64,000 nucleotides of DNA from a virus, in the IMG/VR virus record IMGVR_UViG_3300014913_000759, positions 1-64,000 of that record. One strand, written 5' to 3'. Shown one piece after another: positions 15,018-32,744 of this stretch. Both the position numbers and the translations under genes were made by a program. The notes beneath the pieces were generated by a model, which was not told the DNA's origin, searched no databases, and saw nothing but the letters and a program-made list of their open reading frames with translations. Position 1 is the first letter of the stretch. Each line of letters starts with the position of its first letter.

Positions 15018-15045
15018 ATTATAATACTTTTTTAGGATTTGTCAA
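15018..15045 (-). promoter_or_regulatory. Consensus promoter TTGACA-N16-TATAAT, 7 nt before an ATG (likely leaderless transcript)
   Basis: Perfect hexamers; no SD before ATG at 15010. Confidence 0.7.
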
Positions 15046-15544
15046 GCTTTTTTCTTCTAATTATTTCATTTTTTAAAAGATCATAAATCTCTGCCATTAC
15101 ACCATATCCTGCAAAGGATTCCAGCACATGACAACAATTTTTGATATCGCTGACGGCGTCGGACGGACACAAAGAAAAAGGAATCATTCTACAATTGTCT
15201 ATATCTGAAAAAGAATGGCCCACATACACCACTTCCTCAGGTGTAACACCGTACTTGATCATAGCTTTGGACAGTGCCTCTTTCTTGGTTTTCATACAAA
15301 AGAAAGGTATGTGTCTGGAAGCACAGAGATTCTTATTGACTGCCCAATCTGAAGACACAACAACGACCTTAAATGTGTTCTTTAGTTCATCTATGGCCTC
15401 AAAATCTTTCAAGTTATACTGCTTGAAGGCCACGGATGGCATGTCTGTGATACACACCAACCCTTCTGTGATTACACCGTCTATTTCAAGAGCGATCATC
15501 TTGATCTTTTTAGATTGTTCTTCGAAATCAATGTAATTTGCCAT
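15032..15544 (-). CDS. KdsC/YrbI-family HAD phosphatase homolog with degenerate motifs
   Basis: IKMIALEIDGVITEG (ExD instead of DxD); YVGHSFSD in place of GDDxxD; CPSDA; GYGVMAE. Confidence 0.75.
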   Translation of the reverse strand: MANYIDFEEQSKKIKMIALEIDGVITEGLVCITDMPSVAFKQYNLKDFEAIDELKNTFKVVVVSSDWAVNKNLCASRHIPFFCMKTKKEALSKAMIKYGVTPEEVVYVGHSFSDIDNCRMIPFSLCPSDAVSDIKNCCHVLESFAGYGVMAEIYDLLKNEIIRRKKLDKS

Positions 15545-15557
15545 AAATCTCACCACC

Positions 15558-15950
15558 TTAGTTGTGATTAAACCATTTTCCCCATATTCTTTCATAAAAA
15601 TAATACATAATAATTCGTGAATTCAAATAAATCACTGGTATTATTGCCATTGTTTTTATCTGGTGCGTGAAAAGCCACGCCATCAAACCCAACATGATAT
15701 GACATGTTATAATTTCGTACGTAAACGACTTCAGTATGCTCCGCCTTTTCTTGCCTAGAGCCCATTTGATCTTGGTCCATAATCTTTCATGTAGAAAATA
15801 TGTCAAGACACAAGTCGTATGATGGCCTATGGTTATTCCTGCCACAGCCACCTTATCTTTAGTGATTAAATATGTTAGTACCGCCAGCCAAATTATACCA
15901 GTGACTCTCCAAATTAAACTTTTTAGAAAACTTTCTCCGTGAGGTACCAT
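15558..15950 (-). CDS. DUF2061-like membrane protein (two repeats)
   Basis: SFLKSLIWR...YFLHERLW and SILKSFTY...YYFYERIW. Confidence 0.75.
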   Translation of the reverse strand: MVPHGESFLKSLIWRVTGIIWLAVLTYLITKDKVAVAGITIGHHTTCVLTYFLHERLWTKIKWALGKKRRSILKSFTYEIITCHIMLGLMAWLFTHQIKTMAIIPVIYLNSRIIMYYFYERIWGKWFNHN

Positions 15951-15977: not shown

Positions 15978-16931
15978 TTATCTCACCACCTTATTATTTA
16001 GTTCCTCCTCTAACTCTACCAGTGATACCGTGGCTGTGCCCATTTTGCCAACCACAATCCCTGCAGCTACATTAGATATATAAGCTGCTTCTTTCATTGT
16101 ATATCCGGCCGATACAGCGAGTGTAAATGCTGCTATAACCGTATCGCCTGCACCTGATACATCAAAAACTTCCTTGGCTTCTGTATCAATATGATAGAAA
16201 TCACGGTGTTCGTGCAAATCCATACCGTGTTTGCCTCTGGTTATAAGAAGCTGTGGCAACTCGGCTTGTTCCATTATAATTTCTGCGGCATCTATGATAT
16301 TCTCTGAGCCCGAAGCGGCTACTGCCTCTCGATAGTTCGGTGTGATTATGTTTGCGCCTCTATATTTTGAATAATCCGTGCCGTTTGGATCGACGGCCAC
16401 AAATACGTTGGCTTCCTCTGCCTGCTCCATTATGGAATGAAAAACACCAGGAGTTACGACGCCTTTTCCATAGTCAGATATAATGACGGCGTCGAATCGG
16501 CCGATCTGACCTACCAAGCCTAAGAAATAACTCTCAATATCCTCAGTTAAATCATATGTCATCTCTCTATCAACACGGACTACCTGTTGGTCTCTAGACA
16601 CTATCCGAGCCTTGCGCGTTGTGACGCGGCCGGGATCTGTGACCAAACACTCATCAATATTTTCAGTTCTTTCCAACATACCCATGAGTTTCTTGGCATT
16701 TGTGTCATCACCAATCACGCCGGCCATCATAACTTTGGCCCCCAATGCTGCTAGATTGTTCACGACATTGCCTGCACCACCAAGGACAGAGTGCTCACCC
16801 TCCACCAGAACTACCGGTACCGGTGCTTCAGGAGACATCCTATCAATTCTACCGTAGACATACTCATCTATCATTACGTCGCCAACTACAAGAATATGCT
16901 GTCTATCGAAACTATTTACTTTTGTAATCAT
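15978..16931 (-). CDS. rfaE1: D-glycero-D-manno-heptose-7-phosphate kinase (HldE domain I)
   Basis: GDVMIDEY, RMSPEAPVPV, GGAGNV, SDYGKG, TPN, DVSGAGDT, VGKMGTATV. Confidence 0.94.
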   Translation of the reverse strand: MITKVNSFDRQHILVVGDVMIDEYVYGRIDRMSPEAPVPVVLVEGEHSVLGGAGNVVNNLAALGAKVMMAGVIGDDTNAKKLMGMLERTENIDECLVTDPGRVTTRKARIVSRDQQVVRVDREMTYDLTEDIESYFLGLVGQIGRFDAVIISDYGKGVVTPGVFHSIMEQAEEANVFVAVDPNGTDYSKYRGANIITPNYREAVAASGSENIIDAAEIIMEQAELPQLLITRGKHGMDLHEHRDFYHIDTEAKEVFDVSGAGDTVIAAFTLAVSAGYTMKEAAYISNVAAGIVVGKMGTATVSLVELEEELNNKVVR

Positions 16932-18831
16932 TTTTAGACGTAGCTCCTTTTATGCCCAACCAATCTTGGACTTCTCGAACACGATTATTTACTTTGTCTG
17001 CTGCTTTGCACATATCTAAGTCAACACCGTTATCGTCGCCCCAATGATAAAAAGCCTTAACATCTTTTGGAAAACAATTATGTGTTAGTATATTATTTGC
17101 CACATATTTACCACTTTCAGTCTCTATGGCGAAAACTGTTTTAGGTGTATTTATAATCTCTACAGACTTTACTTTTGTTGCCCAGCCCGTCGGCATGATT
17201 TTACAGTTGGGCGAATCATAAAAAGTATCTGTCTTATACCTACAAACATCAAAATTTAGTCTGTTGGTCCAAGAACACACACGCTCGACTGCCGCACGTG
17301 TAGAAATCCTGATGCTCTTGCCGTTCCTGCTAATATTAGGATTTATACCGTTGGCCAACAGTATACTATCCATTTTCATTATCAAATCGGTGCTTTCTGA
17401 ATGGCATTCTATCGTCCCATCACAGTAACTACCATCGCCGTCGAGCCAACCACCAATTATATTCCTCGTTAGATGTTCACTTAGGGCTGTATATTTTATA
17501 TTTTTGTCATGTGCATTATGGCCCAAATTTAACCTTTCAAACAATCTATACAGCCACATGGATCGTACACGCACAATCCAACAAACAGACCTACCAAAAG
17601 TGCCGTCAGTTGCTTGCAGACGTTTGTAAGGATTCAATCCATATTTAGACAAAGTATTACACACCTCATTGGCTAAGTGTTCCTCATGCTTTCCAAAACT
17701 GAAATAAACCTCTTCTTTTTTATTATATATATTTGAACAGCCCTCAGCTAAATACAAACCAATAACTCGGCATATAGGCTCATCTAAACCTACATATTCA
17801 TGCCATACTTTAACATAACCGTTGGGCCTTTTGCCCATAGCAATTTCTACCGAACCAAGTGTATTTTTTTCTGATGGAACATACAACCAACTATCATCTG
17901 TTATCTCGCACAATTTTTTTTCTTCAACATCTACGAAATCTTTAGTAATCATGTGTATGTGATCTTCTGACCCTTCCAACATTCTTCCGTTGCTCACAAT
18001 CTTTATTGTTCTATCCACCAGTCTAGATGATAAACCAGTTACTCTGGTATAGCTTGTCCCATCAAACACCAGCATACCTGGCGAAACGTCTTCAATATTC
18101 ACAAACTCATGTGTGTTTGTTATGAGCTTCGTTCCTGCCACCAAACACTTGCCCCCATAACCTCGATGGCCATCGTGGCCCGGCACATCTGCGTGGCTGT
18201 TTCCAATACGTTGATCGGAAAGAAACATCTTCTTCATATCATCATAAGGAACATTGATTTTCTCACACACATCATATATCTCGTTTAAGAAGGACACCTT
18301 TACAGCAAAGAAACAATTACACATATATTTAACCGCCTCAGCGCCTTCCCAAGTAGTATGATAAATAGGTGTGTGAACAAACCGAACCCTAAAAAGCTCT
18401 TCCAATATCTCCGTCACGCCGCGATCGCCGCCGAATATAAAACGTGCTGAGTTTATGAAGTCCAATTTGGCCTGACGTTCCGTCAGAAACTCTGGCATAA
18501 AAACAAAATCGTGGTCATCATATTTTTCAGCATACCTTCTGGTCGTTCCTGGGATAGCTGTGCTTCTTAAAACAATAATCTTACGTTCTTTTGCCACACG
18601 AACTATACTTTCTACGGCATCATCCATACTAGAAAGGTCTTGGCTGCCATCATCATTCATGGGTGTAGGAACACCCACAAAGATATAAGGTGTAGAATTT
18701 ACTGTGTCACCTAAAGAATCATATGAATTATCATACTTGTCGTAAATCTTAACGTTAGCATGTAGATAGAAGCCGTGAGTCATTGCTCTACCTAAAAATC
18801 CAAACCCAATTATACCAATAGTTGGTTTCAT
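16912..18831 (-). CDS. UDP-glucose/GDP-mannose 6-dehydrogenase (short phage type), intein-interrupted
   Basis: GFGFLG, GVPTP, RST..PGT, PEFL, KY..N.F.A.K.SF.NE, D.RIG, GYGGK|C-FPKD. Confidence 0.92.
   Translation of the reverse strand: MKPTIGIIGFGFLGRAMTHGFYLHANVKIYDKYDNSYDSLGDTVNSTPYIFVGVPTPMNDDGSQDLSSMDDAVESIVRVAKERKIIVLRSTAIPGTTRRYAEKYDDHDFVFMPEFLTERQAKLDFINSARFIFGGDRGVTEILEELFRVRFVHTPIYHTTWEGAEAVKYMCNCFFAVKVSFLNEIYDVCEKINVPYDDMKKMFLSDQRIGNSHADVPGHDGHRGYGGKCLVAGTKLITNTHEFVNIEDVSPGMLVFDGTSYTRVTGLSSRLVDRTIKIVSNGRMLEGSEDHIHMITKDFVDVEEKKLCEITDDSWLYVPSEKNTLGSVEIAMGKRPNGYVKVWHEYVGLDEPICRVIGLYLAEGCSNIYNKKEEVYFSFGKHEEHLANEVCNTLSKYGLNPYKRLQATDGTFGRSVCWIVRVRSMWLYRLFERLNLGHNAHDKNIKYTALSEHLTRNIIGGWLDGDGSYCDGTIECHSESTDLIMKMDSILLANGINPNISRNGKSIRISTRAAVERVCSWTNRLNFDVCRYKTDTFYDSPNCKIMPTGWATKVKSVEIINTPKTVFAIETESGKYVANNILTHNCFPKDVKAFYHWGDDNGVDLDMCKAADKVNNRVREVQDWLGIKGATSKNDYKSK
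17077..18147 (-). mobile_element. Intein (357 aa) with LAGLIDADG endonuclease, inserted at the catalytic Cys of the dehydrogenase
   Basis: Block A CLVAGTKL; block B SEDH; GLYLAEG and GWLDGDG; YVANNILTHN|C. Confidence 0.95.
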
Positions 18832-18832: not shown

Positions 18833-19804
18833 CTATAATTCCTCCATATACCACTTTATAGTTCTCTCTATGCCCTCTTCAATGGAAACTTTATTTTGCC
18901 AACCAAGTAAATTACGTGCCTTAGATGTGTCAGAAAAGTTTCTCTTTACATCACCCGGCCTTTCGTTTCCATACTTTACCTTTATGTTTTTTATGTCGTA
19001 TTTAGACAGGCCCTTTATAATCAAATCTGTTATTTTTTGTACACTAGTTTCTACATTCGTAGCAACTTGGAATATATTGCCGCCAACAGGCATATCTACA
19101 GCAAGCTGGATAGCGTCTATAAGATCGTCCACATAACAAAAATCACGCGTTTGCGAGCCGTCTCCATAAATCTCTAAAGTTTCTCCAGATACGGCCGCTT
19201 GTATAAATTTTGATATAAGCTGTGCGTATTTATTTTCTGACATAGGCCCATAAACATTACTGAACCTCAATGCCACAGTATCTACCCCATACGTTTCGTT
19301 GTATACATAACAATATTTTTCTCCAGAACATTTGCTTGCGCCGTATGGCGATATAGGTTTTGTAAAAAGCTTCTCGTGATATGGCGGTTCGTGGTCGCCT
19401 GGAACAGCGCTGCTGGACGCAAATATAAACTTCTTAACACCAGCATGTCTCGCACCTTCTAAATAGTTCAGCGTTCCGAAAACATTATTTAAGCAATCTT
19501 CCACAGGAAACTCCACAGACACAGGCACACCAGTGTTGGCAGCAAGATGTACTATCACATCTACATCCTGACAAATTTCTTTAGCAAAGTCCGCATCTAC
19601 TATGTCATCTATAAATAGGTGTACGTGTCCGTGTTCTACGTGGCAGCGTGGAGGCATGCCAAAACTGCAAACACGGGCCAACTTTTCCGTTGAGCCGGAC
19701 TTCAAATTATCAATGATCCTTACATAGTGATCACCCTCCTTAACCAGTCGTGCTACTAAATTTGTTCCTATGAATCCGCAGCCGCCCGTAATCAACCAAT
19801 TCAT
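18833..19804 (-). CDS. NAD-dependent nucleotide-sugar epimerase/dehydratase (GalE/WbpP-like)
   Basis: TGGCGFIG, ASSSA, YGASK, RFSNVYGP, GDGSQTRDF. Confidence 0.93.
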   Translation of the reverse strand: MNWLITGGCGFIGTNLVARLVKEGDHYVRIIDNLKSGSTEKLARVCSFGMPPRCHVEHGHVHLFIDDIVDADFAKEICQDVDVIVHLAANTGVPVSVEFPVEDCLNNVFGTLNYLEGARHAGVKKFIFASSSAVPGDHEPPYHEKLFTKPISPYGASKCSGEKYCYVYNETYGVDTVALRFSNVYGPMSENKYAQLISKFIQAAVSGETLEIYGDGSQTRDFCYVDDLIDAIQLAVDMPVGGNIFQVATNVETSVQKITDLIIKGLSKYDIKNIKVKYGNERPGDVKRNFSDTSKARNLLGWQNKVSIEEGIERTIKWYMEEL

Positions 19805-19807: not shown

Positions 19808-21019
19808 CTACCTCCTAGGTTTTTTAGAGCCCTTTCTATCGACCTTCTTTCCTTTATCCCACATGGATGTGGCAATAATTTTGTCTCTGTCACATCTATC
19901 TACATACTTCTGCGCTATTTCCATCGCCTCAACCAACAAACCATCATCCAACGTTATTGGATTCAACCCCAGATCTAAAAAACTGTCGTTGACAAAAGCA
20001 AGGTCGTTTTTTGGTGCCTCGTTTCTTGGGTTCGCATAGTATCGAATCTCGGCGTCGGTGAGTTCGCAAATCTTGTTGGCCAGCACCAATATATTATGGC
20101 ATTCTGTCGTCTGATTGAAAATTTTGACACGCTCACCTCTCTCGGGAGGGTTTTCTATTGCCAACTTAACACAATTAACGGAGTCCTTCATGTGAATAAA
20201 AGCTCTTGTTTGACCACCCTGGCCATATACAGTTAATGGATGTCCCACGACTGCCTGCATAAGAAAACGATTAAGAACAGTACCATAGTCACCGTCATAA
20301 TCAAACCTATTGATCAGCCGCTCGTCCATCATGGTTTCGTCTGTAGCTGTTCCCCAAACAATGCCTTGGTGTAGGTCGGTGACTCTAACCTGGTCATTCT
20401 TATTATAATACAAAAACGCCAAAGCATCCATAGTCTTTGTCAGGTGGTATACGCTGCCGGGACTGGCTGGATACATGATTTCCAGCTCTTTTTCACCTTC
20501 GTCGGTATCCACTTTAACGGTTAGATATCCTTCTGGTATGGCCATCCCTGCTGTACCATAACCGTACACGCCCGTCGTACCTAGATGAACTAGATGTATA
20601 TCTTGACCAGATTCCACAATAGCACAAAGAATATTGTGTGTGGCATTGATATTATTGTTAACCGTATACCGCTTGTGATAAGAGGACTTCATGGAATACG
20701 GTGCTGCGCGCTGCTCGGCATAGTGTACAACCGCTTTAGGCTTGATACTATCAAGCAGAGACAACACCCGATGATAATGCAGAGACGTATCTATACACAC
20801 GTGTTTGATAGTTCTACCGGTAAGTTCGTTCCAAGCCTTTATTCGGACACCAAGCGGTGCTATTGGCGTTAGAGACTCACACTCTAACTCGATGTCTGTT
20901 TTTCTCCGAACCAAACTATCTACTATTGTGACATTATAGCCAGCATTTGATAAACGCAAACTCAAAGGCCAACCACAAAAACCATCCCCTCCAAAAACTA
21001 TAATGTCTTTTTTACACAT
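19808..21019 (-). CDS. sqdB: UDP-sulfoquinovose synthase
   Basis: GGDGFCGWP, HYAEQRAAPYSMKS, HLVHLGTTGVYGY, IPEGYL, PGSVYHLTK, TDLHQGIVWG, RFDYDGDYGTVLNRF. Confidence 0.93.
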   Translation of the reverse strand: MCKKDIIVFGGDGFCGWPLSLRLSNAGYNVTIVDSLVRRKTDIELECESLTPIAPLGVRIKAWNELTGRTIKHVCIDTSLHYHRVLSLLDSIKPKAVVHYAEQRAAPYSMKSSYHKRYTVNNNINATHNILCAIVESGQDIHLVHLGTTGVYGYGTAGMAIPEGYLTVKVDTDEGEKELEIMYPASPGSVYHLTKTMDALAFLYYNKNDQVRVTDLHQGIVWGTATDETMMDERLINRFDYDGDYGTVLNRFLMQAVVGHPLTVYGQGGQTRAFIHMKDSVNCVKLAIENPPERGERVKIFNQTTECHNILVLANKICELTDAEIRYYANPRNEAPKNDLAFVNDSFLDLGLNPITLDDGLLVEAMEIAQKYVDRCDRDKIIATSMWDKGKKVDRKGSKKPRR

Positions 21020-21671
21020 TCTTATAACCTCCCTTTCGGTAACCTTTTTCTTCGCCAACATGTACGTAATGTTGCGCATCGTGACCAAGGACAAATTTTT
21101 TCAGGCCTAGTTTTTTCGATGCCGGTGTTAGTACCTTAGCTTCGTGCAGTGGCCTGTCCCAACCTATAGTATCTACAAGCTGCCTCACCAGTGAGGTATT
21201 AAATATACCAGTTGCTACCGAAAATAGATTAGATTCTGTAAGCCTAATACCATCAATCTCTGTCTTTCTTGGTTTATTGACAGGATTAATCGGACCCCTA
21301 CTCATCATTATTTCTACAATATTGTCATTGTTGCTTAAAATATCAAATAACGGGTCGATACCCACATTCTCTATAAATCTATTATCATCTTCTAAATGAA
21401 AAAAATAGTCCGACCTACACAAAGAGACCACGGGGCCAAAGAAGCATCCCGGTCCCATCCTGCTTTCACTGAAGATTATCTCGTCGAACCAATCTTTATG
21501 ATTTTCAATCCATTTCTTTCCCGCTACCTGACGTTTATCGTTATCTACTTTGTCCTCTAGAATAACATACCTAAAATTATGCCGGCTCTCTATCCTATCC
21601 ATGAAAGTATTAATAGAAACTTCAAGTATGTCCGGACGTGCGCAGCTATTTATTAGAACATCGATGTCCAT
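21012..21671 (-). CDS. GT-A fold glycosyltransferase (GT2-like)
   Basis: SCARPDIL, YFFHLEDD, YVHVG. Confidence 0.75.
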   Translation of the reverse strand: MDIDVLINSCARPDILEVSINTFMDRIESRHNFRYVILEDKVDNDKRQVAGKKWIENHKDWFDEIIFSESRMGPGCFFGPVVSLCRSDYFFHLEDDNRFIENVGIDPLFDILSNNDNIVEIMMSRGPINPVNKPRKTEIDGIRLTESNLFSVATGIFNTSLVRQLVDTIGWDRPLHEAKVLTPASKKLGLKKFVLGHDAQHYVHVGEEKGYRKGGYKNV

Positions 21672-22324
21672 TCATTACGCTCCTTTTTCAGCTTTACGTC
21701 TGTCATGCCATGGAAATGGAAGACTCTCGGTGTGATATTGTTATATTTTTTTGTTCTAATATTAAACTCTGGAGGTAGTGTATGAATCTGTAGTTCGGAG
21801 CACTGCCAAAGCGACACCCTAAAAGATGGTTGATCTTTGACAATACCTGTAAGTTTATACCAGTTGGCAAAATTTTTGTGCCAAATATCAAAAAATTTCT
21901 TCACTGAGTGGGACTTCCTAAACAATATAACGCCACCAGCATACTCAGGAAACCCATCAGGTATGTTTGCGTAGTCTGGGTAAGGTTTACTCTTTTTAGG
22001 ATCTTTTCTAATTAGATCTTGTGTTGCTGCAATGTCAAACCTATCCATTAGACCAAACAAACACTCGATGTCACCAACCACACCTGTATCACTATCCATG
22101 TAAAGCGTGTTTTCGTAAGGTGACTCCCACAAATACTCCTGTTTAAGTCTGGTGCTATGTGTAGAAATTATTTTTACATTATCAATCTGGTCCAAAGAAG
22201 GATCTTTGTCCGTAAAAAGAGTTATATGTAAATTTGGGTTTGTCAGCCTGATTGTTTTGACTGAATATCTTAATTCTTTTATACATTTATTACCAAACGC
22301 TATATACACAATACCATTCTCCAT
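21653..22324 (-). CDS. GT-A fold glycosyltransferase (GT8-like)
   Basis: TLYMDSDT, GGVILF, DQPSFR, LPPEFN, FHFH. Confidence 0.8.
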   Translation of the reverse strand: MENGIVYIAFGNKCIKELRYSVKTIRLTNPNLHITLFTDKDPSLDQIDNVKIISTHSTRLKQEYLWESPYENTLYMDSDTGVVGDIECLFGLMDRFDIAATQDLIRKDPKKSKPYPDYANIPDGFPEYAGGVILFRKSHSVKKFFDIWHKNFANWYKLTGIVKDQPSFRVSLWQCSELQIHTLPPEFNIRTKKYNNITPRVFHFHGMTDVKLKKERNEWTSMF

Positions 22325-22325: not shown

Positions 22326-22931
22326 TTATTTCTCCGCTATAATCCAAACCGACACTAGATTTTTTCCATCACAGGCCACTGCCTTCTTCTCTAAAGAGGA
22401 CCCAGGCACAACTTTTGCGCCTCCCCTACCATGTAATACGTCTAAAACAAAATTAATGTCTCCGGTGCCCCCATATTTATGTATCTTTGAAAAGTTTTCA
22501 CACAAAACTTTTAGACCGTCAGGAGTAAACCTCCAATAGTCCTGCGGGACTCCGTGCATGTAAAATATAAGAGCCGAAGTAAGAACCGCTATGCCACCTG
22601 GTCTTAAAACACGTCTGACCTCTTCGACACCTACCCATGGTTTTCTTACGTGCTCCAACACCTGGTCGGCCATTACATAATCAAAGCTATTATCGTCATA
22701 AGGCATTTTTTGTATATCAACTTCTGGATATGTGGGTGCTACAATTTTGCAGCCCTTTGGCAACATATCTATGAGAGCAGTGTTCTTTATTTTTATAGTA
22801 TCGTCGCCCTTGCCTTTTATAGAATCGCCGACTAATAAGCATCTGCCTACTGACAACTTGTTGGTTTTAAAAAACTTTTCTATGTCTGTATACATAGCGT
22901 ATCGTGAAAATTTATATCTTCTACTTGGCAT
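22326..22931 (-). CDS. Class I SAM methyltransferase (type 11)
   Basis: DIQKMPYDDNSFD, VLEHV, RVLRPGG, DYWRFT. Confidence 0.88.
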   Translation of the reverse strand: MPSRRYKFSRYAMYTDIEKFFKTNKLSVGRCLLVGDSIKGKGDDTIKIKNTALIDMLPKGCKIVAPTYPEVDIQKMPYDDNSFDYVMADQVLEHVRKPWVGVEEVRRVLRPGGIAVLTSALIFYMHGVPQDYWRFTPDGLKVLCENFSKIHKYGGTGDINFVLDVLHGRGGAKVVPGSSLEKKAVACDGKNLVSVWIIAEK

Positions 22932-23490
22932 TTTTATCTCCCCTCAGCACACACCATTTAAGAGCGCACCAAGGTTTTGTAGGGATTTTTATCTGTGAAG
23001 CAACAACATCGTGCTCGCTCTTCGGTAAGTTTATTTTTTTGTAATGCCACTCTATCCAAAGCTCATCCACATAAGCAAAAGATCCGTCGGTAAACATCTT
23101 AGGCAACACACTATACTCTGCGCCCTCTATGTCCATCTTCAGGATTATATAATCGTCTTTGGATAAATTATCTTTGACCCATTTAGAAAAATCTATAGCA
23201 GTTACTTTGGCTGGATGGTCTTTGTCCAACATTCCAGTACGCTTAGACTTGACTAGTGTTCCGCCATCTCTAAGAGCTGCTGAGCTTTTATAAAAACTAA
23301 GTTCGCCATCTTCAACCCAAACCGCACAATTAATAAACACCTGCTTATCTAAATCGCCAAAGTATTTGGAAAAATATGGATCAGCCTCGAAACTGTATAT
23401 AAAATATTCTGATTCTTTGTCGTACTCTTTTCTAAAATGTCTGGCCGAGCATCCATCGTGTGCTCCAGCATCCAAAAATACTTTAGCCAT
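22921..23490 (-). CDS. FkbM-family methyltransferase
   Basis: FLDAGAHDG, SFEA, LKMDIEGAEY, IEWH. Confidence 0.9.
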   Translation of the reverse strand: MAKVFLDAGAHDGCSARHFRKEYDKESEYFIYSFEADPYFSKYFGDLDKQVFINCAVWVEDGELSFYKSSAALRDGGTLVKSKRTGMLDKDHPAKVTAIDFSKWVKDNLSKDDYIILKMDIEGAEYSVLPKMFTDGSFAYVDELWIEWHYKKINLPKSEHDVVASQIKIPTKPWCALKWCVLRGDKNAK

Positions 23491-25140: not shown

Positions 25141-26122
25141 CTACTTTATCCCTTATAAACTTTGCCGCGTGTTTTAGCGACAGATGATTTTCGTAATATT
25201 TTCTAGGCTCGTACATGTCTAAATTCTCTAGTACAAACCGAACCTTGTCCCAAAAATTTTCTTCTGTTGCTAACTCGCCAGTGGAAAATGGAGACGAAGA
25301 ATCTACTGGGCTGACAATATATTTACTGCGCCAAAACTTTACACGGCTCAATGCTACCACTGGAACATTGCATGCCAACATTTCCGGTATAACCCTTGGG
25401 CAAGAGTCTATTTCAGCTCTAGACGCCATTATACCAACTTTACATTTGGCAATGTTTTCTGCCATTTTTGGCCTTAGTACCCTATAAGAAGTAACATTAT
25501 CAGGGTACTTAAATTTCTTAGGGTTGTTGCCTAAATTCAAAAGTTTGATGTCCTTTGGAACAGTCGGGTATACAAAATCGTGGCCTTTAAAGTGTTGTGC
25601 GCCGTTGGCCGGAAAACACACGTCATATTCCTTTTCGACTTCTGACATCGGATAAAAGATATTGTCTGCTGCCGGCTTTATAAACAAAGTTGTTAGTGGT
25701 TTTGGAAACTTTTCTTTACAAATTTCTACCTGTTCGTGTGAATCCTGTAATATTATATCGTAATCGAAATACCCGGGTTGAGGCAAAAATCTTCTGCCGG
25801 CACCGTAATAAATCTTAATGGCAAATGGAAATCTATGCAGCACCTCATGGTACTCAGGAAATCCTCCTCGGCAAAATATAACATCTGGGCAAAAATTTGG
25901 TTGGTAGGTGGTAAAAGATGGTACCCACCTTTCCACAAAGTTGTGTGCGAACCTATGTTCTCTATCGCCTCCCCAATACCACAACTCACACTTATCTTCT
26001 TCGTTTGCCATAGAATAAAATAAATGAGTCCACATGTCATCACATTCTTCAAGCCTATCAAATACGATTTCCTGTGGATTTCTATCCCTCGGTACTTCCC
26101 CTCGGAGCATCAATAGGTTCAT
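25097..26122 (-). CDS. GT-B glycosyltransferase
   Basis: FYP...KEYDVCF, KG, DSCPRVIPEMLACNVPVV. Confidence 0.8.
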   Translation of the reverse strand: MNLLMLRGEVPRDRNPQEIVFDRLEECDDMWTHLFYSMANEEDKCELWYWGGDREHRFAHNFVERWVPSFTTYQPNFCPDVIFCRGGFPEYHEVLHRFPFAIKIYYGAGRRFLPQPGYFDYDIILQDSHEQVEICKEKFPKPLTTLFIKPAADNIFYPMSEVEKEYDVCFPANGAQHFKGHDFVYPTVPKDIKLLNLGNNPKKFKYPDNVTSYRVLRPKMAENIAKCKVGIMASRAEIDSCPRVIPEMLACNVPVVALSRVKFWRSKYIVSPVDSSSPFSTGELATEENFWDKVRFVLENLDMYEPRKYYENHLSLKHAAKFIRDKVDEINVQQLSKRSRK

Positions 26123-27035
26123 TACAATACACCTCGCTTGCTTCGGACATAAACCGCGCCATAATAATTTGTTTTATACCGTGTAGGACAACCTCAGGGT
26201 CGATATCTCTACACTGCCAATCCTTACAATCCTTTTGCCAGCGTCTTGTTTTCTGACAAGGTCTACATTCCAGATCGTCTCTGGTAATAATGGTTGAATA
26301 CTTGTGGAAACGTTCGTCATAATTCTTCTTAATAGAAGTAGCCGTAAATATTACAATATTGTCTGTTTCCAGGGCATTAGATGCGTGATACATTCCGGAG
26401 TCGTTTCCGACGAAAAGCCTAGCATTCTTGATAAGACCTAGACTTTCCTGCAGGCTAAGACCTGTTCTATCTTCAGTGCCTTCAATATATTCTTCTTTGG
26501 CGCCGATGGAACAAACTTTGACACCCTCTAAATATTCAACAACTTTTTCGTAGTGAGTGTAGCTTTTCACCGACCAATTTGCGCTTCCATACCTATTATA
26601 ACCATTGTGCATGACAATGTCAAATTTTTCTTCTGTCTTTCCATATGCACAGATGCCGTGCCAAAGAATATTCTCTTCCTTGACACCGAGGTCTCTAGCG
26701 ATGTCCATATAGGTGTCCACTTCGCTGCGATCCACGCTCAGCGGCTGGATCTTGTTAAGAAGTGCCATGCGTGCGAATGGACCCTGACCGACTATATTCT
26801 GTGTCCACATAGTAGACACGTAACCGTCGTACGAAAACATATCCAGTTTGTTGATGTTCTGACCAACCACCCACTTGCCGACATACGGAATAAGCCTGTC
26901 TTTTATTCCGTAGCTACCATGCGCGTGCCAGAAGTCGACCTTGTGGCCGAGAACCTCAGTAAGTGTTCTAATTACTGGAATACACTGGATGATGTTTCCT
27001 ATTCCCTCTCCGTGGCAAAAAAGAAGTTTAGCCAT
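26082..27035 (-). CDS. GT9 (heptosyltransferase-like) glycosyltransferase
   Basis: GIGN..QCIP, KSY, GNDSGMYHASNAL, CRPC...C....C. Confidence 0.88.
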   Translation of the reverse strand: MAKLLFCHGEGIGNIIQCIPVIRTLTEVLGHKVDFWHAHGSYGIKDRLIPYVGKWVVGQNINKLDMFSYDGYVSTMWTQNIVGQGPFARMALLNKIQPLSVDRSEVDTYMDIARDLGVKEENILWHGICAYGKTEEKFDIVMHNGYNRYGSANWSVKSYTHYEKVVEYLEGVKVCSIGAKEEYIEGTEDRTGLSLQESLGLIKNARLFVGNDSGMYHASNALETDNIVIFTATSIKKNYDERFHKYSTIITRDDLECRPCQKTRRWQKDCKDWQCRDIDPEVVLHGIKQIIMARFMSEASEVYCNEPIDAPRGSTEG

Positions 27036-27903
27036 AATTGTAACCATACCTCCGGTGTAATATTGCTCTGTACCAAGCCTTGTGCCATCTCCTATCAAAA
27101 TTTGCTCTGGCGTTGCAAGAAGTACAAAGTGTTATCAAGTTTTCCGGTCCACAACTTTTCTTGTTATAATCAATGTGGTGTATATTCAAAGTTTTATAAT
27201 TATTACGGCAATCGGGGTTCAAGCATTTATGGCCATCTCTGTCCTTAATACTTTCTTTGTACTCTTTGTCCAACCAAATATCACAGTAAGGCTCACAAGT
27301 AATGCCACCCTTCCAATTGTGGTGTGTCGAGCCACTACTACGCTCAAACCAACATGCCCTACATCTAAAACCCCTAACCCAATCATTCCACGTAGTAGAT
27401 GCTGTATGTCCGTTGCTACAAATATAATATAATTTTGTTTTGTTATTTTTATAGGTCTTAGAAAGTAGTTTACATCCCTCTTTCCCAAAACTTCGCCTGA
27501 CAAACTCTATACTATGTTTTGCTGTGCCTGAGCATACAGCGCAGCGGGCGCCGTTCTTCCAAGAAACCCAACTAATTCTATATTCGTGCCCTTCGGAACA
27601 TATATATCTAAGTTTTTGTGTGTTGTTTTTATATTCGGTATTCAACAACATATAACCCTCAGAACTAAACGCACTTCTAACTGTTTCTATACCTAGCGAC
27701 ATTTTTGGTGCTGCTTTTTTATAACCACAGTAACGGCACCTCTGACCCCTCTTCCACCTATGCCAATTTGTACTACTTTTGTGGCCTTTTGGGCAGACGT
27801 ACTTCAACACAGACTCGCAGTTTTTATACTCGTCTGTCAAAAGGGTATAACCCTCCTTCTTAAACTGATCTCTTACAAACCCATATGTTAGTCTTCTAGG
27901 CAT
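27028..27903 (-). mobile_element. Free-standing HNH homing endonuclease with three Zn-ribbon repeats
   Basis: 3x F..EG..LL...YKN...L.Y.C..GH...W..W..G.RC..C; HNWKGG; HHIDYNK..C..ENLITLC.SCN..AN. Confidence 0.88.
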
Positions 27904-28810
27904 TTTTCTTTCCTGATAGTTTCAATGTACCATCCCACTCTTCTAAAAGTGGTGAAAAAGATTTATAGTCATTATATTGCTTCGCAGCAGTGAGCTCATA
28001 CATTTTGTTGGCATCTTTTATTATTTCCCTCAGATTCTCTATTCTCTCATCAAAGTCCTGACCAGGAATCACACCACCGGGCCTATTTATACCAACAAAC
28101 CCAATGTGGATTTGACGATTTACATACGGATTTATAATCCATTTATCTTCTTCAATCATGGCCACTGAAGTTAAACGATTTATGAGCCCCGCTTGCTGCC
28201 AATGCATAGGCTTGTCCGGATCATATTTGTAACCTTTTTCCTGGTAGCCCTTTTCCTTATAGTGCTTGTCCATTGCAACAATAAAACCTGGTTCATTTTT
28301 ATAATAATCCATGATAGAATGCGGTGCTATATATTTATAGTAGAACTCCTTAGGTATAAGAGGCGCTAAAGCGGCATAATGATGTCCTTGATAAACCTCC
28401 GAAACTTTGCTGTCTACATCTTCTTTAGTAAATGGTGATAAAATTGAATACTTGCCCTTCGCTTCCGGCATATTCATAAGAAGATCCATATATTTAAAAT
28501 ACGTCTTATGAATCAAGATGTCATCCTCTATATAAACCACATAATCATCTGTCATCTTAAACGCTTTGGCCATACCTTCCAGTATGTTAACAGTCAATCC
28601 GTAGCGCTGTGGTCTAAACTCAAAGACACTTTCATAAGGATATTTCTGTAATAGATTGAGTACCTCTTGTGGGGTACCTGCTTCTACTAGAAAGAGTGTT
28701 ATGAACTGTCCTGGTAAAGAATAATAATCCCTAGCAGCTTTTTCGTATTCTAGAGATAGATAAAGCATTTCGGGGCGATTGTATATGGGTCTGAGTATAA
28801 TATTCGCCAT
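27896..28810 (-). CDS. GT-A glycosyltransferase
   Basis: PIYNRPEML, VVYIEDD, HIGFVG. Confidence 0.78.
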   Translation of the reverse strand: MANIILRPIYNRPEMLYLSLEYEKAARDYYSLPGQFITLFLVEAGTPQEVLNLLQKYPYESVFEFRPQRYGLTVNILEGMAKAFKMTDDYVVYIEDDILIHKTYFKYMDLLMNMPEAKGKYSILSPFTKEDVDSKVSEVYQGHHYAALAPLIPKEFYYKYIAPHSIMDYYKNEPGFIVAMDKHYKEKGYQEKGYKYDPDKPMHWQQAGLINRLTSVAMIEEDKWIINPYVNRQIHIGFVGINRPGGVIPGQDFDERIENLREIIKDANKMYELTAAKQYNDYKSFSPLLEEWDGTLKLSGKKNA

Positions 28811-29322
28811 TATAGTTTCCTCACTTTCATCTCAAAGTTGCTGCCTATTTCTTTGTAGTCAATTTCTTTTAGCCCGCAATCAGCACAAATTTTAGAGAAC
28901 CATGCTCTGTCAAATCCTACATAGTGAAAGTTCTGTGCGTAATCTTGGCCGCCAAAAAGAAGCCAAGAGATTGTGGCTGTGTGTGCTGGGTCTTTCTTCC
29001 TATTTACATACTGTTGACATATGTAAGCAAGATTAGGCATACGAAACTCGATTGTTCCGCCCTTCTTCAACACACTTGACCATTCCTTAATAAGTCTCTT
29101 TGTCTTAGAAGCGTGTTTATCGCCCGGCGGAAAATGCTCTATGACATCGCTCGCCAGAATGTAATCCACGCTCTCTGGTTTGAAAGGCAGTGGCTTACTA
29201 AGATCTGCACGAACATCCTGTTTAGGCAGACCTTTCCTCACGTCTACGTTAAAACACCTGTTCTGTGCTGGATATTTTCTATATGCGCGCTCTCCGCTTC
29301 CTAGATTAAGCGTTATCTTCAT
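28810..29322 (-). CDS. Class I SAM methyltransferase (type 11)
   Basis: LNLGSG, NVD, PLPF, DVIEH, VLKKGG. Confidence 0.85.
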   Translation of the reverse strand: MKITLNLGSGERAYRKYPAQNRCFNVDVRKGLPKQDVRADLSKPLPFKPESVDYILASDVIEHFPPGDKHASKTKRLIKEWSSVLKKGGTIEFRMPNLAYICQQYVNRKKDPAHTATISWLLFGGQDYAQNFHYVGFDRAWFSKICADCGLKEIDYKEIGSNFEMKVRKL

Positions 29323-30440
29323 AGAGATTTAATCTCCTTCAACATCTTCTTGCCAACTTTTTCCCAGGTAAAGTTATTTCCGATGTATCTTTTCATTCTA
29401 CCTGCTTTTTCCTGCGCCTCATCTGGATTCTCATACACCTGTCTCATAAGTTGCGAGGCGTGGTGTACGTCTGCAGAAGCCCATAGCTGGTCACCCGTAT
29501 ACCAAGGGCCCCATATCATACCAAATACCGGCTGTAGTGTGTAATCGACTAGGTAGCTATTGTCGGGCTTTGCGTATTCCAAAGCGCCGCCGAATCCCGT
29601 CACTATGATGGGCTTACTGCAGGCACCTGCCGTAAAACCAGAAAGACCAAAACCTTCGCCCCTATCCAGAGATACAAAACAGTCTCCTCTTGCGTGTAGG
29701 CCCAAAATCTCGTTCCTCGTTAAAAGATCAAGAATTAGATAGACCTTGGCATGTGGATTTGGCATAGGCATGACCTGCTTCAGTCTTTTAATCGTCTGCC
29801 TGACAATGTCTTTGTCCTTGTCAGAGTAGTTAGTTCTATATGTTTTCATAACTAACGCTACGTTCTCATTGCTCTGGAAAGCGTGCCAGTATGCTCTCAG
29901 CATTGAGGTAGGATTCTTTCTTTCCATGAACTGAAATATACTATAGAATACAAAAGTATCATCATCCACACCTTTAATGTCGTACGGCTTAATGCCATCG
30001 AACTCGGCCATATCTATGCCGTGAGGAACCACACCAACTGGTACCTTTATACCGCTTTCCTTGTATACATCAGAGTTCCAGTCACAGCAGGTGAGAATCA
30101 TATCCATCTTGTTCATCATCTCTACCCAGTCTGGAGGCAGCTTAGTGGTTTCCCACACAGTGTACCCAATATTAACCTTATCAACCTCTTTCTTTGCTTC
30201 AAAGTGGTGTGGTGTGTTGTGGTTAATGACTATATTATAATCAATGTCCTTGTTTATAAGACTAGACAGCGTCTCGCCGTACTTCTCATTGACCGGTCTG
30301 ATCTCTTCAAAAGATACGGGCGCACACGTAATTGGTATGCCCATCTGATGAAGAGCCATTACATAGCCACGCGATGCCTCGCCGTATCCTGATCCGTCTA
30401 ACAACGGAGAAATATATTTAATCCCCTTTATTTCCATCAT
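29319..30440 (-). CDS. GT4 glycosyltransferase
   Basis: SGYG, WET, VPHG, ERKN, RGEGFGL. Confidence 0.9.
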   Translation of the reverse strand: MMEIKGIKYISPLLDGSGYGEASRGYVMALHQMGIPITCAPVSFEEIRPVNEKYGETLSSLINKDIDYNIVINHNTPHHFEAKKEVDKVNIGYTVWETTKLPPDWVEMMNKMDMILTCCDWNSDVYKESGIKVPVGVVPHGIDMAEFDGIKPYDIKGVDDDTFVFYSIFQFMERKNPTSMLRAYWHAFQSNENVALVMKTYRTNYSDKDKDIVRQTIKRLKQVMPMPNPHAKVYLILDLLTRNEILGLHARGDCFVSLDRGEGFGLSGFTAGACSKPIIVTGFGGALEYAKPDNSYLVDYTLQPVFGMIWGPWYTGDQLWASADVHHASQLMRQVYENPDEAQEKAGRMKRYIGNNFTWEKVGKKMLKEIKSL

Positions 30441-30672
30441 CGTCTCCTTTAAACAAGTCTTTTATATCTTTCATTCGTGATGCAATCATCACCTCCGGCA
30501 ACTTCTCATACATCTCGGCCAACTGTGCAAAATCAGCATCTGGGGCCATCAAATGGAACATAAGAAAAAGCTCTAAGCGTGTTATTTTATTGTCGAGGTA
30601 GCTTAGATACTCCCCCAAGGAGTACTCTATTTGCTCTCCATCAGATGTTCTGGTAATATATATGTTTGGCAT
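30418..30672 (-). CDS. Hypothetical protein
   Basis: ORF coupled to thyA (TAATG). Confidence 0.55.
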   Translation of the reverse strand: MPNIYITRTSDGEQIEYSLGEYLSYLDNKITRLELFLMFHLMAPDADFAQLAEMYEKLPEVMIASRMKDIKDLFKGDDDGNKGD

Positions 30673-31373
30673 TACTCTGACCTCATTGTCCTTATTTTGG
30701 CCAGTTCCCAGGCGTAGTCATATAAATGTAGGCCTTTAGTGGCGGCCACCAACTCACCATCATCCACGCCTATTTCACTAGCCATGTATTCCTTGAGTAG
30801 TTGTAAGCCCCCTAAATTGGCGGGCAATCCATTATAGAGATCCCATGACCTGAAATAAACAAAGAAATGAAGTTTGCCGTTGCTAATTCTAGTATCAATA
30901 TGCCTCAGACATGGAGGGTCGCCAAGCAAAATATCAGATGGTGCTGATATAGACATAGCTGCCTGGTTAGTGCCATATCCTTTTGTTTTATACATATCAA
31001 TAACTTCATCAATCTGGTTGACCATTTTCGGAGACATTATTTCGTGCGTATAATATTGCCAACCGGCGAGGCGTTCTCCGTAAGTATAATCCTCGTTTGG
31101 TTGCTTCATGTTTGTCATAAGATATGGTAAATATTCCTCTATATAACCATCTGCCACGGGGTTTGGTATACCAAGTGAAGCAGGAATATCGGGAATAAGC
31201 GGCCTAACACCTGGGTATTTTACATGTATCGTGATGTAATCAAACTCCAGGCGTTGTTGGCCTACGTAACTACCGTGGTCAATAGTGTATTTATGGCCAC
31301 GGTCTAAAATCCCATACACACACTGAAACCATGCGTCCGGCAAGTCTCTTGCTTTTACTTCAACTAAATCCAT
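30672..31373 (-). CDS. thyA: Thymidylate synthase (short, archaeal/deltaproteobacterial-type)
   Basis: YTYGERL, PPCL, FRSWDL...PAN (Asn = dUMP specificity), HLY. Confidence 0.88.
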   Translation of the reverse strand: MDLVEVKARDLPDAWFQCVYGILDRGHKYTIDHGSYVGQQRLEFDYITIHVKYPGVRPLIPDIPASLGIPNPVADGYIEEYLPYLMTNMKQPNEDYTYGERLAGWQYYTHEIMSPKMVNQIDEVIDMYKTKGYGTNQAAMSISAPSDILLGDPPCLRHIDTRISNGKLHFFVYFRSWDLYNGLPANLGGLQLLKEYMASEIGVDDGELVAATKGLHLYDYAWELAKIRTMRSE

Positions 31374-32744
31374 CTATATTTCCTCCGCTTCAATAACACC
31401 CTCGTCTTCCTTTTCTTCCTCTTTCTTGGGCGCTGAGTCATTTTGAAGCTCTTCGTAAGCTTTATCGAAAATTTCTACCCACTGTGGTGCAATGCTTCTT
31501 TGCCAATCCATCGACATATTCACCCAACGATAGGCGTTTTCTGCTCTTTCCTTGGCCTCATCGTAGTTGTTATAGATGTGTAACATCTTTGCCACCATGT
31601 CTTCCACGTCTACCAAAGGACGAACCACTTCGTTATCATTAGGTACGACGGTAAACAGGCTTGGATTGGTGCCGCTATCAATCAGATAACCTCTCTCCTC
31701 AGTAATGAACTCAGTAAGTGCTGTGTTGTTCGGCATAAGAACCGGTGTTTTAGTTGCCATAGCCTCAATCCAGCTAAGACCAAAACCCTCACCGATACAA
31801 CTACTAACAACACAATCACTGATATTATAGATCATATTCACAATTTCCCTAGGATATCCTTGATTGGGACCAAAATTTTCAGGGAATATTACATCCTCTT
31901 TGATGCTTAAACCTTCTGCCTCTACAATCTGAGGTAGATCCCAGCCCTGGTCTTTCTTGGCCATATGCAGGTAGAGAATTGACTCCGGAACTTGCTTTTT
32001 GAACTCTCTAAAAGCCTTGATAGTCCTAGGAATGTCCTTGCGTTGCTGATTTCTATTTAAATTTGTCCATATAAACTTATCAGCGTGTGCACCAAAGTAT
32101 TTCTTCCTAAACGCCTGTACCTCTGAGTCTGGATGTGGGTAGTACTCACGTGTATTAACGCCGTGAGGAATTACCGACAACTCCGGAACATCTGGGTACA
32201 CTAATTCAGACATTTTCTTACCAAATTCACAATAGGCAACAGGATGATCTACAACACTGATGTTCTTAATCCACTGTGTCTTAGGCGTACCATCGATGGG
32301 ATAATAACAAATGGACTTAAACTTCTTTCCGCCCATTCTCAAATGTGGAATGAGTTCTGGTAAGAAGTCCATTATAAAAGTATCCTGCAAGAAAAACAAA
32401 AGATCGTACTCCATCTGAGGCATCATCTTACAAATTTTCTGTCTACCATATGGATCGTTCTGTGGGTTTGTACCGGTAGGCCAAATTCTGTAGGGATATG
32501 GATGTGGGTTGCCCCAATAATTAATACCAAGGATGTCTATATCATACCTACCAGTCCTGTACAAACCTTCAAATATGTTCCTTGAAACCGTACCAAAACC
32601 GGTGGCACAAGAAGGCGTATCACAATAAGCCAATACCTTTATCTTTTTCTCCGGCTGCTTTTGTGCTGGTGCCTTGGGTGTGGGCATCTTAAACGTCTTC
32701 TTTGGGCCCGATGTTTTCTTTTTATTCTTCTTATTCTTTGCCAT
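31374..32744 (-). CDS. GT4 glycosyltransferase
   Basis: TGFG, IPHG, NRNQQRK, GEGFGLSWIEAMA. Confidence 0.92.
   Translation of the reverse strand: MAKNKKNKKKTSGPKKTFKMPTPKAPAQKQPEKKIKVLAYCDTPSCATGFGTVSRNIFEGLYRTGRYDIDILGINYWGNPHPYPYRIWPTGTNPQNDPYGRQKICKMMPQMEYDLLFFLQDTFIMDFLPELIPHLRMGGKKFKSICYYPIDGTPKTQWIKNISVVDHPVAYCEFGKKMSELVYPDVPELSVIPHGVNTREYYPHPDSEVQAFRKKYFGAHADKFIWTNLNRNQQRKDIPRTIKAFREFKKQVPESILYLHMAKKDQGWDLPQIVEAEGLSIKEDVIFPENFGPNQGYPREIVNMIYNISDCVVSSCIGEGFGLSWIEAMATKTPVLMPNNTALTEFITEERGYLIDSGTNPSLFTVVPNDNEVVRPLVDVEDMVAKMLHIYNNYDEAKERAENAYRWVNMSMDWQRSIAPQWVEIFDKAYEELQNDSAPKKEEEKEDEGVIEAEEI

Follow-up and report, generated by a model that had tools for sequence, protein, structure and literature searches.

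The 64,000-nucleotide stretch of DNA analysed here (the window) is the first 64 kb of the 92,464-bp virus record IMGVR_UViG_3300014913_000759. Between positions 15032 and 32744, it carries a glycan island, lineage-specific and hypervariable, from the early (replication) operon of an uncultured jumbo phage. The island is a real, ordered and unusually large set of genes for soluble glycan enzymes and, as judged from its sequence, includes a genuine UDP-sulfoquinovose synthase of the SqdB type. Its enzymes would build an anionic, O-methylated hetero-oligosaccharide wholly in the cytoplasm, for which the phage's own virion proteins are the tentatively preferred acceptor. Confirmation of this product would provide the first case of a virus that makes a glycoconjugate with sulfoquinovose, and would extend the occurrence of this sugar past sulfolipid and archaeal N-glycans. 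To our knowledge, no phage system for sulfoquinovosyl transfer has been characterised. The island further offers a natural collection of glycosyltransferases and methyltransferases that are soluble, need no carrier and come in exchangeable modules.

The contig is viral, as a preliminary description of this DNA had supposed, yet it is only about one third of a jumbo phage: CheckV scored relatives of 105-150 kb as 37-57% complete, which implies a full genome of roughly 260-290 kb, of which the record covers a part. Nearly all genes of the window are on the minus strand. From 43.6 kb down to 1 kb they form a single replication and nucleotide-metabolism array, with sliding clamp, RecA, DnaB, primase, DnaJ, RuvC and a PD-(D/E)XK nuclease preceding the island and clamp loader, PolA, dUTPase, NrdJ, RNase HII and dCMP deaminase following it. 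Past 43.8 kb, giant fibre-like proteins are encoded that are recognised by almost no profile; PHROGs and Pfam searches of the late genes gave almost no match, and capsid, portal and terminase were not nameable. Lysogeny genes were not seen. A megablast search of the island against GenBank phages returned zero matches.

Enzymes of the island

The island comprises 22 open reading frames (ORFs), all on the minus strand and with gaps of -100 to +27 nt, most of them abutting or overlapping; the co-oriented, coupled array of about 17.7 kb described before was thus found again. The earlier count of nine glycosyltransferases (GTs) and three S-adenosylmethionine (SAM) methyltransferases was reproduced, with seven GTs recognised by profile or fold and two being leads from the ESM-Atlas. 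From the first island gene onwards, the enzymes are as follows (bit scores in brackets).

31374..32744, minus strand: GT4 glycosyltransferase GT4c456, first and most conserved island gene (Glycos_transf_1 47.5 bits; GT4-conflict 34.6 bits)
30672..31373, minus strand: short ThyA-type thymidylate synthase homologue (PF00303 46.7 bits; TIGR03283 103 bits)
29319..30440, minus strand: GT4 glycosyltransferase GT4_373, second conserved core gene (Glycos_transf_1 25.9 bits, cut-off 26.4; GT4-conflict 20.9)
28810..29322, minus strand: SAM methyltransferase, semi-conserved core gene that many relatives have (Methyltransf_11 32.3 bits, cut-off 21.2)
27896..28810, minus strand: GT-A-like glycosyltransferase of 304 amino acids (aa), lead only (no Pfam match; ESM-Atlas)
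26082..27098, minus strand: GT9 heptosyltransferase-family enzyme (PF01075 38.1 bits, cut-off 22)
25097..26122, minus strand: GT-B glycosyltransferase, weakly GT4-like, 57-70% identical in relatives (Glyco_trans_1_4 21.2 bits, under cut-off)
24196..25140, minus strand: GT4-like GT-B glycosyltransferase of 314 aa (Glycos_transf_1 33.6 bits)
23483..24295, minus strand: GT-A (Nucleotid_trans) glycosyltransferase (PF03407 24.1 bits, cut-off 22)
22921..23490, minus strand: FkbM-family SAM methyltransferase (PF05050 42.3 bits; TIGR01444 51.6, cut-off 37.7)
22326..22931, minus strand: SAM methyltransferase (Methyltransf_11 47.5 bits)
21653..22324, minus strand: GT-A-like glycosyltransferase GT-A223 of 223 aa, SqdB sub-block (weak PF03407 match, 18.3 bits)
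21012..21671, minus strand: GT-A-like glycosyltransferase GT-A219 of 219 aa, lead only (no family match; ESM-Atlas structural template-modelling (TM) score 0.83, viral GT2 cluster)
19808..21019, minus strand: UDP-sulfoquinovose synthase, SqdB/SQD1 type (SQD1 alignment and NF041015)
18833..19804, minus strand: short-chain dehydrogenase/reductase (SDR), UDP-hexose/hexuronate 4-epimerase-like (Epimerase 192.6 bits)
16912..18831, minus strand: compact NDP-sugar (UDP-glucose-type) 6-dehydrogenase, intein-interrupted (PF03721 and PF00984)
17077..18147, minus strand: intein with LAGLIDADG endonuclease (LAGLIDADG_3 and Intein_splicing matches)
15978..16931, minus strand: heptose-7-phosphate kinase, HldE domain I type (TIGR02198 363.6 bits, cut-off 345, full length)
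15032..15595, minus strand: KdsC-like HAD sugar-phosphate phosphatase, conserved last island enzyme (TIGR01670 50.7 bits, under cut-off)

The identification of SqdB, already made in the preliminary description, is borne out by an alignment of 309 bits with Arabidopsis SQD1 (1qrr), in which residues 29-414 pair with 2-384, the SQD1-specific insertions included. The catalytic Thr and the Tyr-His-x-x-Lys motif are kept (LGTTGVYG and VYHLTK versus LGTMGEYG and FYHLSK in SQD1). On NF041015 the protein scored 317.5 bits, which is under the equivalog cut-off of 575 bits, the runner-up family reaching 44 bits. Translation probably starts at 21019, the database gene call being 403 aa. The enzyme, which would form UDP-sulfoquinovose from UDP-glucose and sulfite, is 62-70% identical to bacterial SqdB proteins of many phyla, with Desulfobacterota giving the best matches (about 70%); the distribution was retained as a hint to donor or host, not as an assignment. 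An NCBIfam search of all transferases gave no SqdX/SQD2-like sulfolipid synthase and no other specific assignment.

The SDR, predicted to make a 4-epimer, has GalE, WbgU and WbpP as its closest PDB relatives, with UDP-glucuronic acid 4-epimerase lower in the list; pairing of the SDR with SqdB was seen in phage relatives as well as at 24 of 80 cellular loci. In the adjacent dehydrogenase, the intein sits immediately before the catalytic Cys (GYGGK/C...THN/CFPKD, with slashes at the splice junctions), as read from the sequence and from intein-free relatives, two of which (L030, L045) encode a dehydrogenase of 282 aa. Removal of the intein restores the motif GYGGK-C-FPKD (family motif GGxCxxKD) and leaves a mature form of the same 282 aa, which is unusually short for a family of about 390-450 aa. 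No match to PF03720 was obtained, and the full C-terminal UDP-binding domain is thus missing, which makes the substrate uncertain; after splicing, a UDP-hexuronic acid would be the expected product.

The heptose arm proposed earlier stands in part. Kinase and GT9 enzyme were confirmed, and the kinase would make heptose-1,7-bisphosphate. The route to ADP-heptose is incomplete in the window: scans revealed no SIS or cytidylyltransferase domain as expected of GmhA and of the heptose nucleotidyltransferase HldC, and in place of GmhB there is only the KdsC-like HAD protein, so that host enzymes would be required to reach ADP-heptose. The KdsC-like phosphatase matches PDB entries of KdsC. One relative has a cytidylyltransferase-like gene (CTP_transf_like) in its island.

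Among the transferases, GT4c456 gave an AlphaFold model (mean pLDDT confidence 82) whose best match is the chlorovirus NY-2A glycosyltransferase 3oy2, followed by BshA, SPS and MshA. Its C-terminus (31374-31420) carries an acidic I-E-x-E-E-[F/I/L] motif after a disordered linker in 16 of 16 aligned homologues, which looks like a candidate docking motif for a partner; a 62-aa ORF at 33922-34110 ends in the similar SIVEAEGE. GT4_373 is a distant paralogue of GT4c456 and is 47-75% identical in relatives. In the ESM-Atlas, the 304-aa GT-A-like protein has viral GT2/GNT-I-like clusters as its neighbours (feature score 0.98, structural TM score 0.82), and the neighbours of both this ORF and GT-A219 are mostly viral. 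The GT-B enzyme at 24196 travels with that at 25097 in relatives. The start codon of the GT-A gene at 23483 is uncertain, a 100-nt overlap with the upstream gene suggesting a later start.

Foldseek placed the GT9 model nearest to WaaF (1psw), a Veillonella GT9 (3tov) and WaaC (2h1f), with the protein heptosyltransferase TibC ranking 11th. Near its C-terminus, in a region with pLDDT below 50, GT9 has four invariant Cys residues (261, 264, 274 and 279; CxxC-x9-C-x4-C), a motif not known from WaaC or WaaF. The arrangement loosely recalls the iron finger of TibC (Cys339/342/358/370), a type of enzyme that also has an N-terminal beta-barrel and a beta-hairpin thumb; the island GT9 is too short for the barrel. 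As a test of the acceptor, the Foldseek comparison of the GT4c456 and GT9 models was set aside: it confirmed the folds and did not discriminate between protein, lipid and DNA.

In nine related contigs, GT-A219 is encoded upstream of SqdB, either immediately or separated from it by one small ORF. No homologue was found at a distance of up to 8 kb from SqdB in any of 80 cellular genomes. GT-A223 adjoins both in five related contigs, where it is 57-72% identical. By this gene linkage, GT-A219 is the likely candidate for an undescribed sulfoquinovosyltransferase, and a concrete one.

No family of flippase, Wzy, ABC exporter or initiating phosphoglycosyltransferase was detected in Pfam scans of the window, consistent with the export-free system first described. 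When representatives of the 48 gene clusters that occur in the islands of relatives and not in the window were scanned with Pfam, export families were likewise missing among the 25 commonest of 54 families. A hydropathy scan of the island products showed a sole weak membrane-like segment, in a DUF2061 protein. This protein and three further ORFs in or beside the island complete the inventory.

30418..30672, minus strand: 84-aa ORF with no family match (Pfam scan)
27028..27903, minus strand: CapR and HNH homing endonuclease, a mobile insert and no glycan enzyme (CapR 26.5 bits; HNH region matches IscB)
15558..15950, minus strand: DUF2061 small protein (PF09834 52.7 bits)
14348..15010, minus strand: 220-aa repeat protein (ORF 14348), conserved neighbour of the island end (35% identity to residues 771-993 of 56395-59385)

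The DUF2061 gene had zero homologues in any related locus fetched and is unique to the island of the window. In two relatives (L037, L044), the slot after the heptose kinase is filled by ORFs of about 130 aa instead, which may be the cytidylyltransferase-like gene of the pooled Pfam scan.

The locus in related phages

An island occupies this same locus, between the PD-(D/E)XK nuclease and the clamp loader, in no fewer than 35 related metagenomic contigs. Homologues of GT4c456, 46-77% identical, were found in 23 IMG/VR contigs, always directly after the nuclease and, in 23 of 23, preceded by the order DnaN, RecA, DnaB, primase, DnaJ, RuvC and nuclease. GT4c456 is followed, often via a thymidylate synthase-type gene, by GT4_373, the methyltransferase, the 304-aa GT-A and variable genes; the KdsC-like phosphatase and then the clamp loader mark the end. 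The constant opening thus consists of two conserved GT4 genes, and the remainder varies. In its smallest form, in L022, the island is reduced to both GT4 enzymes together with the phosphatase and one protein that includes the ORF 14348 domain.

A metagenome scan with SqdB yielded 12 or more further contigs of the lineage, in which the block GT-A223, GT-A219, SqdB and SDR recurs just before phosphatase and clamp loader, sometimes joined by dehydrogenase and heptose kinase. In a separate 149-kb virus, SqdB is accompanied by the same SDR and by two GT-B enzymes that are likewise related.

The relatives' islands also contain genes that are absent from the window, namely four sulfotransferase clusters, adenosine phosphosulfate (APS) kinase, TylF-type O-methyltransferases, hexapeptide acyltransferases, a UDP-GlcNAc 2-epimerase and the cytidylyltransferase-like gene. 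The sulfotransferases and the APS kinase make a variable, tailored, sulfated or sulfonated glycan a common theme. From these gene contents, the lineage appears to reach an anionic sulfo-glycan in two ways, either through SqdB or through sulfotransferases dependent on phosphoadenosine phosphosulfate together with APS kinase, which points to selection for negative charge on the decorated target.

The host probably belongs to Desulfobacterota-like Gram-negative bacteria. This hint comes from the best cellular SqdB matches and from the thymidylate synthase homologue, which is 65-80% identical to proteins of metagenome-assembled genomes (MAGs) of Desulfobacterales and Deltaproteobacteria. Sulfate reducers have abundant intracellular sulfite and APS, and these pools would suit both sulfo routes.

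Selfish inserts are frequent in the lineage, as evident from copies of the CapR-HNH gene at differing replication and island positions (L007, L008, L010, L014, L020 and L023-L025) and from over-long island genes, which are probably further inteins (GT4_373 of 736-1198 aa, GT4c456 of 815 aa in L026 and SqdB of 738 aa in L044).

Two observations concern regions outside the window. At 82400-83535 of the genome (L002:7400-8535, minus strand), adjacent genes match TPP_enzyme_C (40 bits) and, weakly, TPP_enzyme_N (17.5 bits); by these matches, of which that of the N half is weak, the pair is a split sulfopyruvate/phosphonopyruvate decarboxylase-like enzyme. It lies among structural genes beside an Ig-domain protein and is kept in G006, a related jumbo phage. 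In G006, positions 4130-30049 form one ORF of 8,639 aa upstream of the conserved late genes.

Acceptor of the predicted glycan

In the proposed pathway, the two conserved GT4 enzymes would start the glycan by attaching a constant base to the acceptor. Extension would follow by as many as seven other transferases of the GT-A, GT-B and GT9 types, with GT-A219 likely adding sulfoquinovose, and the three SAM methyltransferases would cap hydroxyls. The acceptor, as the least certain step, would be the phage's own virion proteins, either fibre-like or capsid, and the outcome a variable, negatively charged particle coat as in mycobacteriophage virions, chlorovirus capsids and mimivirus fibrils. We give this assignment tentative preference, at somewhat less than an even chance.

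Several observations suggest a virion target. In cultured phages, homologues of GT4c456 are adjacent to head and packaging genes: Synechococcus phage S-CBS4 has two GTs and a methyltransferase between the portal and the protease/major head protein, and in Tetrasphaera phage TJE1 the homologue belongs to a sugar cluster that precedes the terminase. In structure, GT4c456 comes closest to the chlorovirus enzyme, and mycobacteriophage virion glycosylation provides a precedent. ORF 14348, conserved at the island end, is a free-standing paralogue of the C-terminal domain of a 996-aa tail-fibre-like protein (56395-59385, minus strand) and has five [ST]-x-S-G motifs versus 0.4 expected. Its homologues adjoin the phosphatase in six relatives. 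The domain was also seen within proteins of 708-871 aa beside the island (L022, L045) and among the fibre genes of G006.

The same motif is enriched in the late proteins (46424-64000 and 64-92 kb of the genome), where 55 occurrences compare with 19.9 expected (2.8-fold); estimates span 2.3-2.8 fold, part of the excess being repeat structure. Early proteins, with ORF 14348 set aside, showed no enrichment (3 versus about 5.9), and in G006, which is about 45% identical, the region of 30-82 kb gave about 50 versus about 21. Some motifs are located at the extreme N- or C-termini of fibre-like proteins, two of which end in ...ATTSG and ...TLSGTTISGGGY.

Other findings weigh against virion proteins as the acceptor. 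The island is co-transcribed with replication genes, between nuclease and clamp loader, and not with the late structural genes. The motif excess consists partly of a repeated a-T-x-S-G-v unit in paralogous domains and may reflect a fold instead of a glycosylation site. Pyle et al. report DNA-glycan clusters next to structural genes, which makes the head-proximal homologues of cultured phages compatible with DNA targets as well. Of the original proposal, a cytoplasmic route to an anionic methylated glycan agrees with the gene content, whereas the attachment to virion proteins or DNA is not shown by these sequences. Nor do the absent export genes argue for a soluble acceptor, as had been suggested. 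In lipopolysaccharide (LPS) core-type assembly, peripheral GT4 and GT9 enzymes act on lipid A-Kdo (3-deoxy-D-manno-oct-2-ulosonic acid) and the host's own MsbA/Lpt machinery exports the product, so that the absence of export genes does not discriminate between acceptors.

Remodelling of the host envelope is the foremost alternative, which we consider unlikely. In this case the enzymes would work from the cytoplasmic side of the inner membrane and modify a lipid of the host, either the lipid A-Kdo core or diacylglycerol, and MsbA/Lpt would export a more anionic glycolipid, resulting in receptor masking or in less sticking of progeny to debris. GT9, heptose kinase of the HldE type and KdsC-like phosphatase are a signature of LPS inner-core synthesis, to which a WaaG-like GT4 can be added, and the GT9 model is closer to WaaF/WaaC than to TibC; both points also speak against protein acceptors. 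Core assembly needs no flippase of its own, and the likely host lineage has LPS, LpxB adjoining the cellular thymidylate synthase homologue in the MAG HGW-Deltaproteobacteria-15 (G001). Large LPS-like glycosyltransferase clusters of unknown role are present in cyanomyoviruses (PMC12801897). However, the island lacks any function for Kdo, lipid A or membrane anchoring, the lack of visible lysogeny genes removes the usual setting of seroconversion, and a sulfolipid synthase of the SqdX/SQD2 type was not detected. Moreover, the GT4 pair (57-77%) is better conserved than DnaB and RecA across phages of probably different hosts, and the GT-A enzymes have their nearest homologues in viruses rather than in cells.

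DNA as the acceptor is a still less likely alternative. The thymidylate synthase homologue would supply a hydroxylated or hydroxymethylated pyrimidine, the GT4 enzymes, perhaps with others, would glycosylate the DNA, and distal sugars would diversify under pressure from modification-dependent nucleases. The position of the island inside a replication and nucleotide-metabolism operon agrees with this, as does a phage-encoded dCMP deaminase and dUTPase. The series GT4, thymidylate synthase homologue, GT4 and HAD phosphatase mirrors the clusters of RB69, DLP3 and RL38J1 (PMC13326640), which tells against a protein acceptor, and the gaps around the synthase gene are 0 to -1 nt. Phage DNA is known to bear heptose and glycans as large as trisaccharides (bioRxiv 10.1101/2023.12.21.572611). 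Conversely, nine transferases and anionic sugars go far beyond any known DNA glycan.

Diagnostic ThyA positions have been published for the three clusters named above (PMC13326640), and the window protein and eight relatives were aligned with control proteins from GenBank phages. The equivalents of Cys146, Arg166, Ser167, Asp169 and Asn177 are kept (PPC, RSWD and PANL, invariant in nine relatives), whereas Leu143 is replaced by Asp and His147 by Leu. Asn177 is of the uracil type in the window protein and the eight relatives, and retention of Asp169 means that the protein is not a 5-hydroxy-dCMP synthase. Asp at the position of E. coli Leu143 also occurs in the dUMP hydroxymethylases of SPO1, M6 and ViI and in T4 gp42, T4 td having Leu, and would favour base modification. 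It is, however, shared by all 120 closest database homologues, including a chromosomal one: G001 encodes a homologue, 65-76% identical, with RlmN, HisG, LpxB and a sigma-54 activator as neighbours (ends of C104 and C6; L138-L141). No other ThyA or ThyX was found in this MAG, which is possibly incomplete; four other genomes searched have ThyX only. The residue is thus a trait of the short ThyA subfamily, and we withdrew it as proof of a dUMP hydroxymethylase, as it is common to all homologues and to the apparently sole thymidylate synthase of G001. The phage protein is probably a dUMP-specific, ordinary dTMP-making enzyme. For the mining of DNA modification genes, this is a caution that an acidic residue at the Leu143 position is no hydroxymethylase mark in this subfamily.

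The content of the slot between the two GT4 genes varies. One relative (L016:10987-12207) has a canonical ThyX with an intein inside its RHR...S motif (RHRVSSY/C...VVHN/SQQSQRY), and several have nothing there, which argues against DNA modification. Six relatives have a family of about 200 aa instead:

L023:11365-11973: copy of the slot family
L024:12119-12721: copy of the slot family
L020:11287-11895: copy of the slot family
L015:9334-9960: copy of the slot family
L009:9672-10235: copy of the slot family
L025:12340-13911: copy of the slot family, with an insert of about 340 aa

By eye, this family resembles ThyX (GH..LE...R...QS and N...L...F..R......W) with TYR replacing RHR, and would then favour base modification; hhalign against the ThyX of L016 (0.8% probability) and PDB searches, which returned nothing, did not support this resemblance. 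Neither TET/JBP nor a C5 methylase was found in the 92-kb contig, a genome fragment, and a Walker-A scan of the same incomplete genome for a deoxynucleoside monophosphate (dNMP) kinase gave clamp loader, DnaB and RecA only. Palindrome avoidance as a proxy for DNA modification was uninformative, with mild depletion of some 4-mers (0.57-0.77). DNA is therefore a possible acceptor that lacks its key prerequisite, a demonstrable source of a hydroxylated base. The full version, in which the GT4 pair and the GT-A/SqdB module place a methylated oligosaccharide with sulfoquinovose and heptose on a modified pyrimidine made by the thymidylate synthase homologue, appears improbable; if true, it would introduce sulfonation to nucleic-acid glycans and far surpass all of them in complexity.

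That the island is a loose set of auxiliary metabolic genes without a common product, sqdB for instance boosting host sulfolipid and sparing phosphate, is very improbable: sqdB is best known from sulfolipid synthesis and was reported once from a virus as an auxiliary gene (PMC7785012), but the genes are translationally coupled, the block GT-A223, GT-A219, SqdB and SDR recurs across relatives, no sulfolipid synthase was detected, and the island is kept as one locus with exchangeable sugar modules.

Comparison with known systems

A viral UDP-sulfoquinovose synthase has already been reported, from a Mu-like virus of the Cariaco Basin, and was read there in glycosylation terms (PMC7785012); the earlier statement that nothing had been described on phage sulfoquinovose is corrected accordingly. 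That case is a single auxiliary gene of an unrelated virus with no linked transferases described (PMC7785012). With SQD1, SqdB and Agl3, the island enzyme shares full-length homology and the catalytic Thr, Tyr-His and Lys. In contrast to these, it is tied to two virus-specific GT-A enzymes and is not located beside SqdX, SQD2 or SqdD.

The LPS inner-core pathway (HldE, KdsC, WaaC/WaaF and WaaG) and the LPS-like clusters of cyanomyoviruses use the same families and need no dedicated export genes. Unlike the inner-core pathway, the island has no GmhA, HldC, KdsA/B, WaaA or lipid A genes, and its GT9 carries the extra four-Cys motif.

Phage DNA glycosylation includes arabinosyl-5-hydroxycytosine in RB69 and DLP3 (PMC13326640), 5-hydroxymethylcytosine (hmC) glycans including heptose (bioRxiv 10.1101/2023.12.21.572611) and the glucosyl-hmC of T-even phages. 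Such clusters resemble the island in GT4-like transferases flanking a thymidylate synthase homologue, in a HAD phosphatase with sugar-nucleotide genes and in their location in the replication region. Here, by comparison, the synthase homologue has the uracil-type Asn, a normal Asp169 and a probable housekeeping counterpart in bacteria, the transferases are many more, and dNMP kinase and dioxygenase were not found.

The glycan clusters of chloroviruses and the mimivirus group are likewise virus-encoded, cytoplasmic, carrier-independent and clade-specific and make unusual methylated glycans, the chlorovirus NY-2A enzyme 3oy2 being the best fold match of GT4c456. They belong to eukaryotic viruses, and orthology to the island at the sequence level is not apparent. 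We know of no sulfonated sugar described for their glycans.

Mycobacteriophage virion glycosylation (Freeman et al. 2023, as cited in PMC12619734 and PMC12801897) is, as far as these citing accounts describe it, similar in that soluble glycosyltransferases encoded by the phage act in the cytoplasm on structural proteins of the same phage, as would be the case here, and in that gene sets vary between relatives. According to the same accounts, those systems have 2-4 genes in the late structural operon and proven C-terminal tails as acceptors. The island described here instead has 20 or more genes in the replication operon, with its own sugar-nucleotide synthesis and a predicted sulfo-sugar, uronic acid and heptose.

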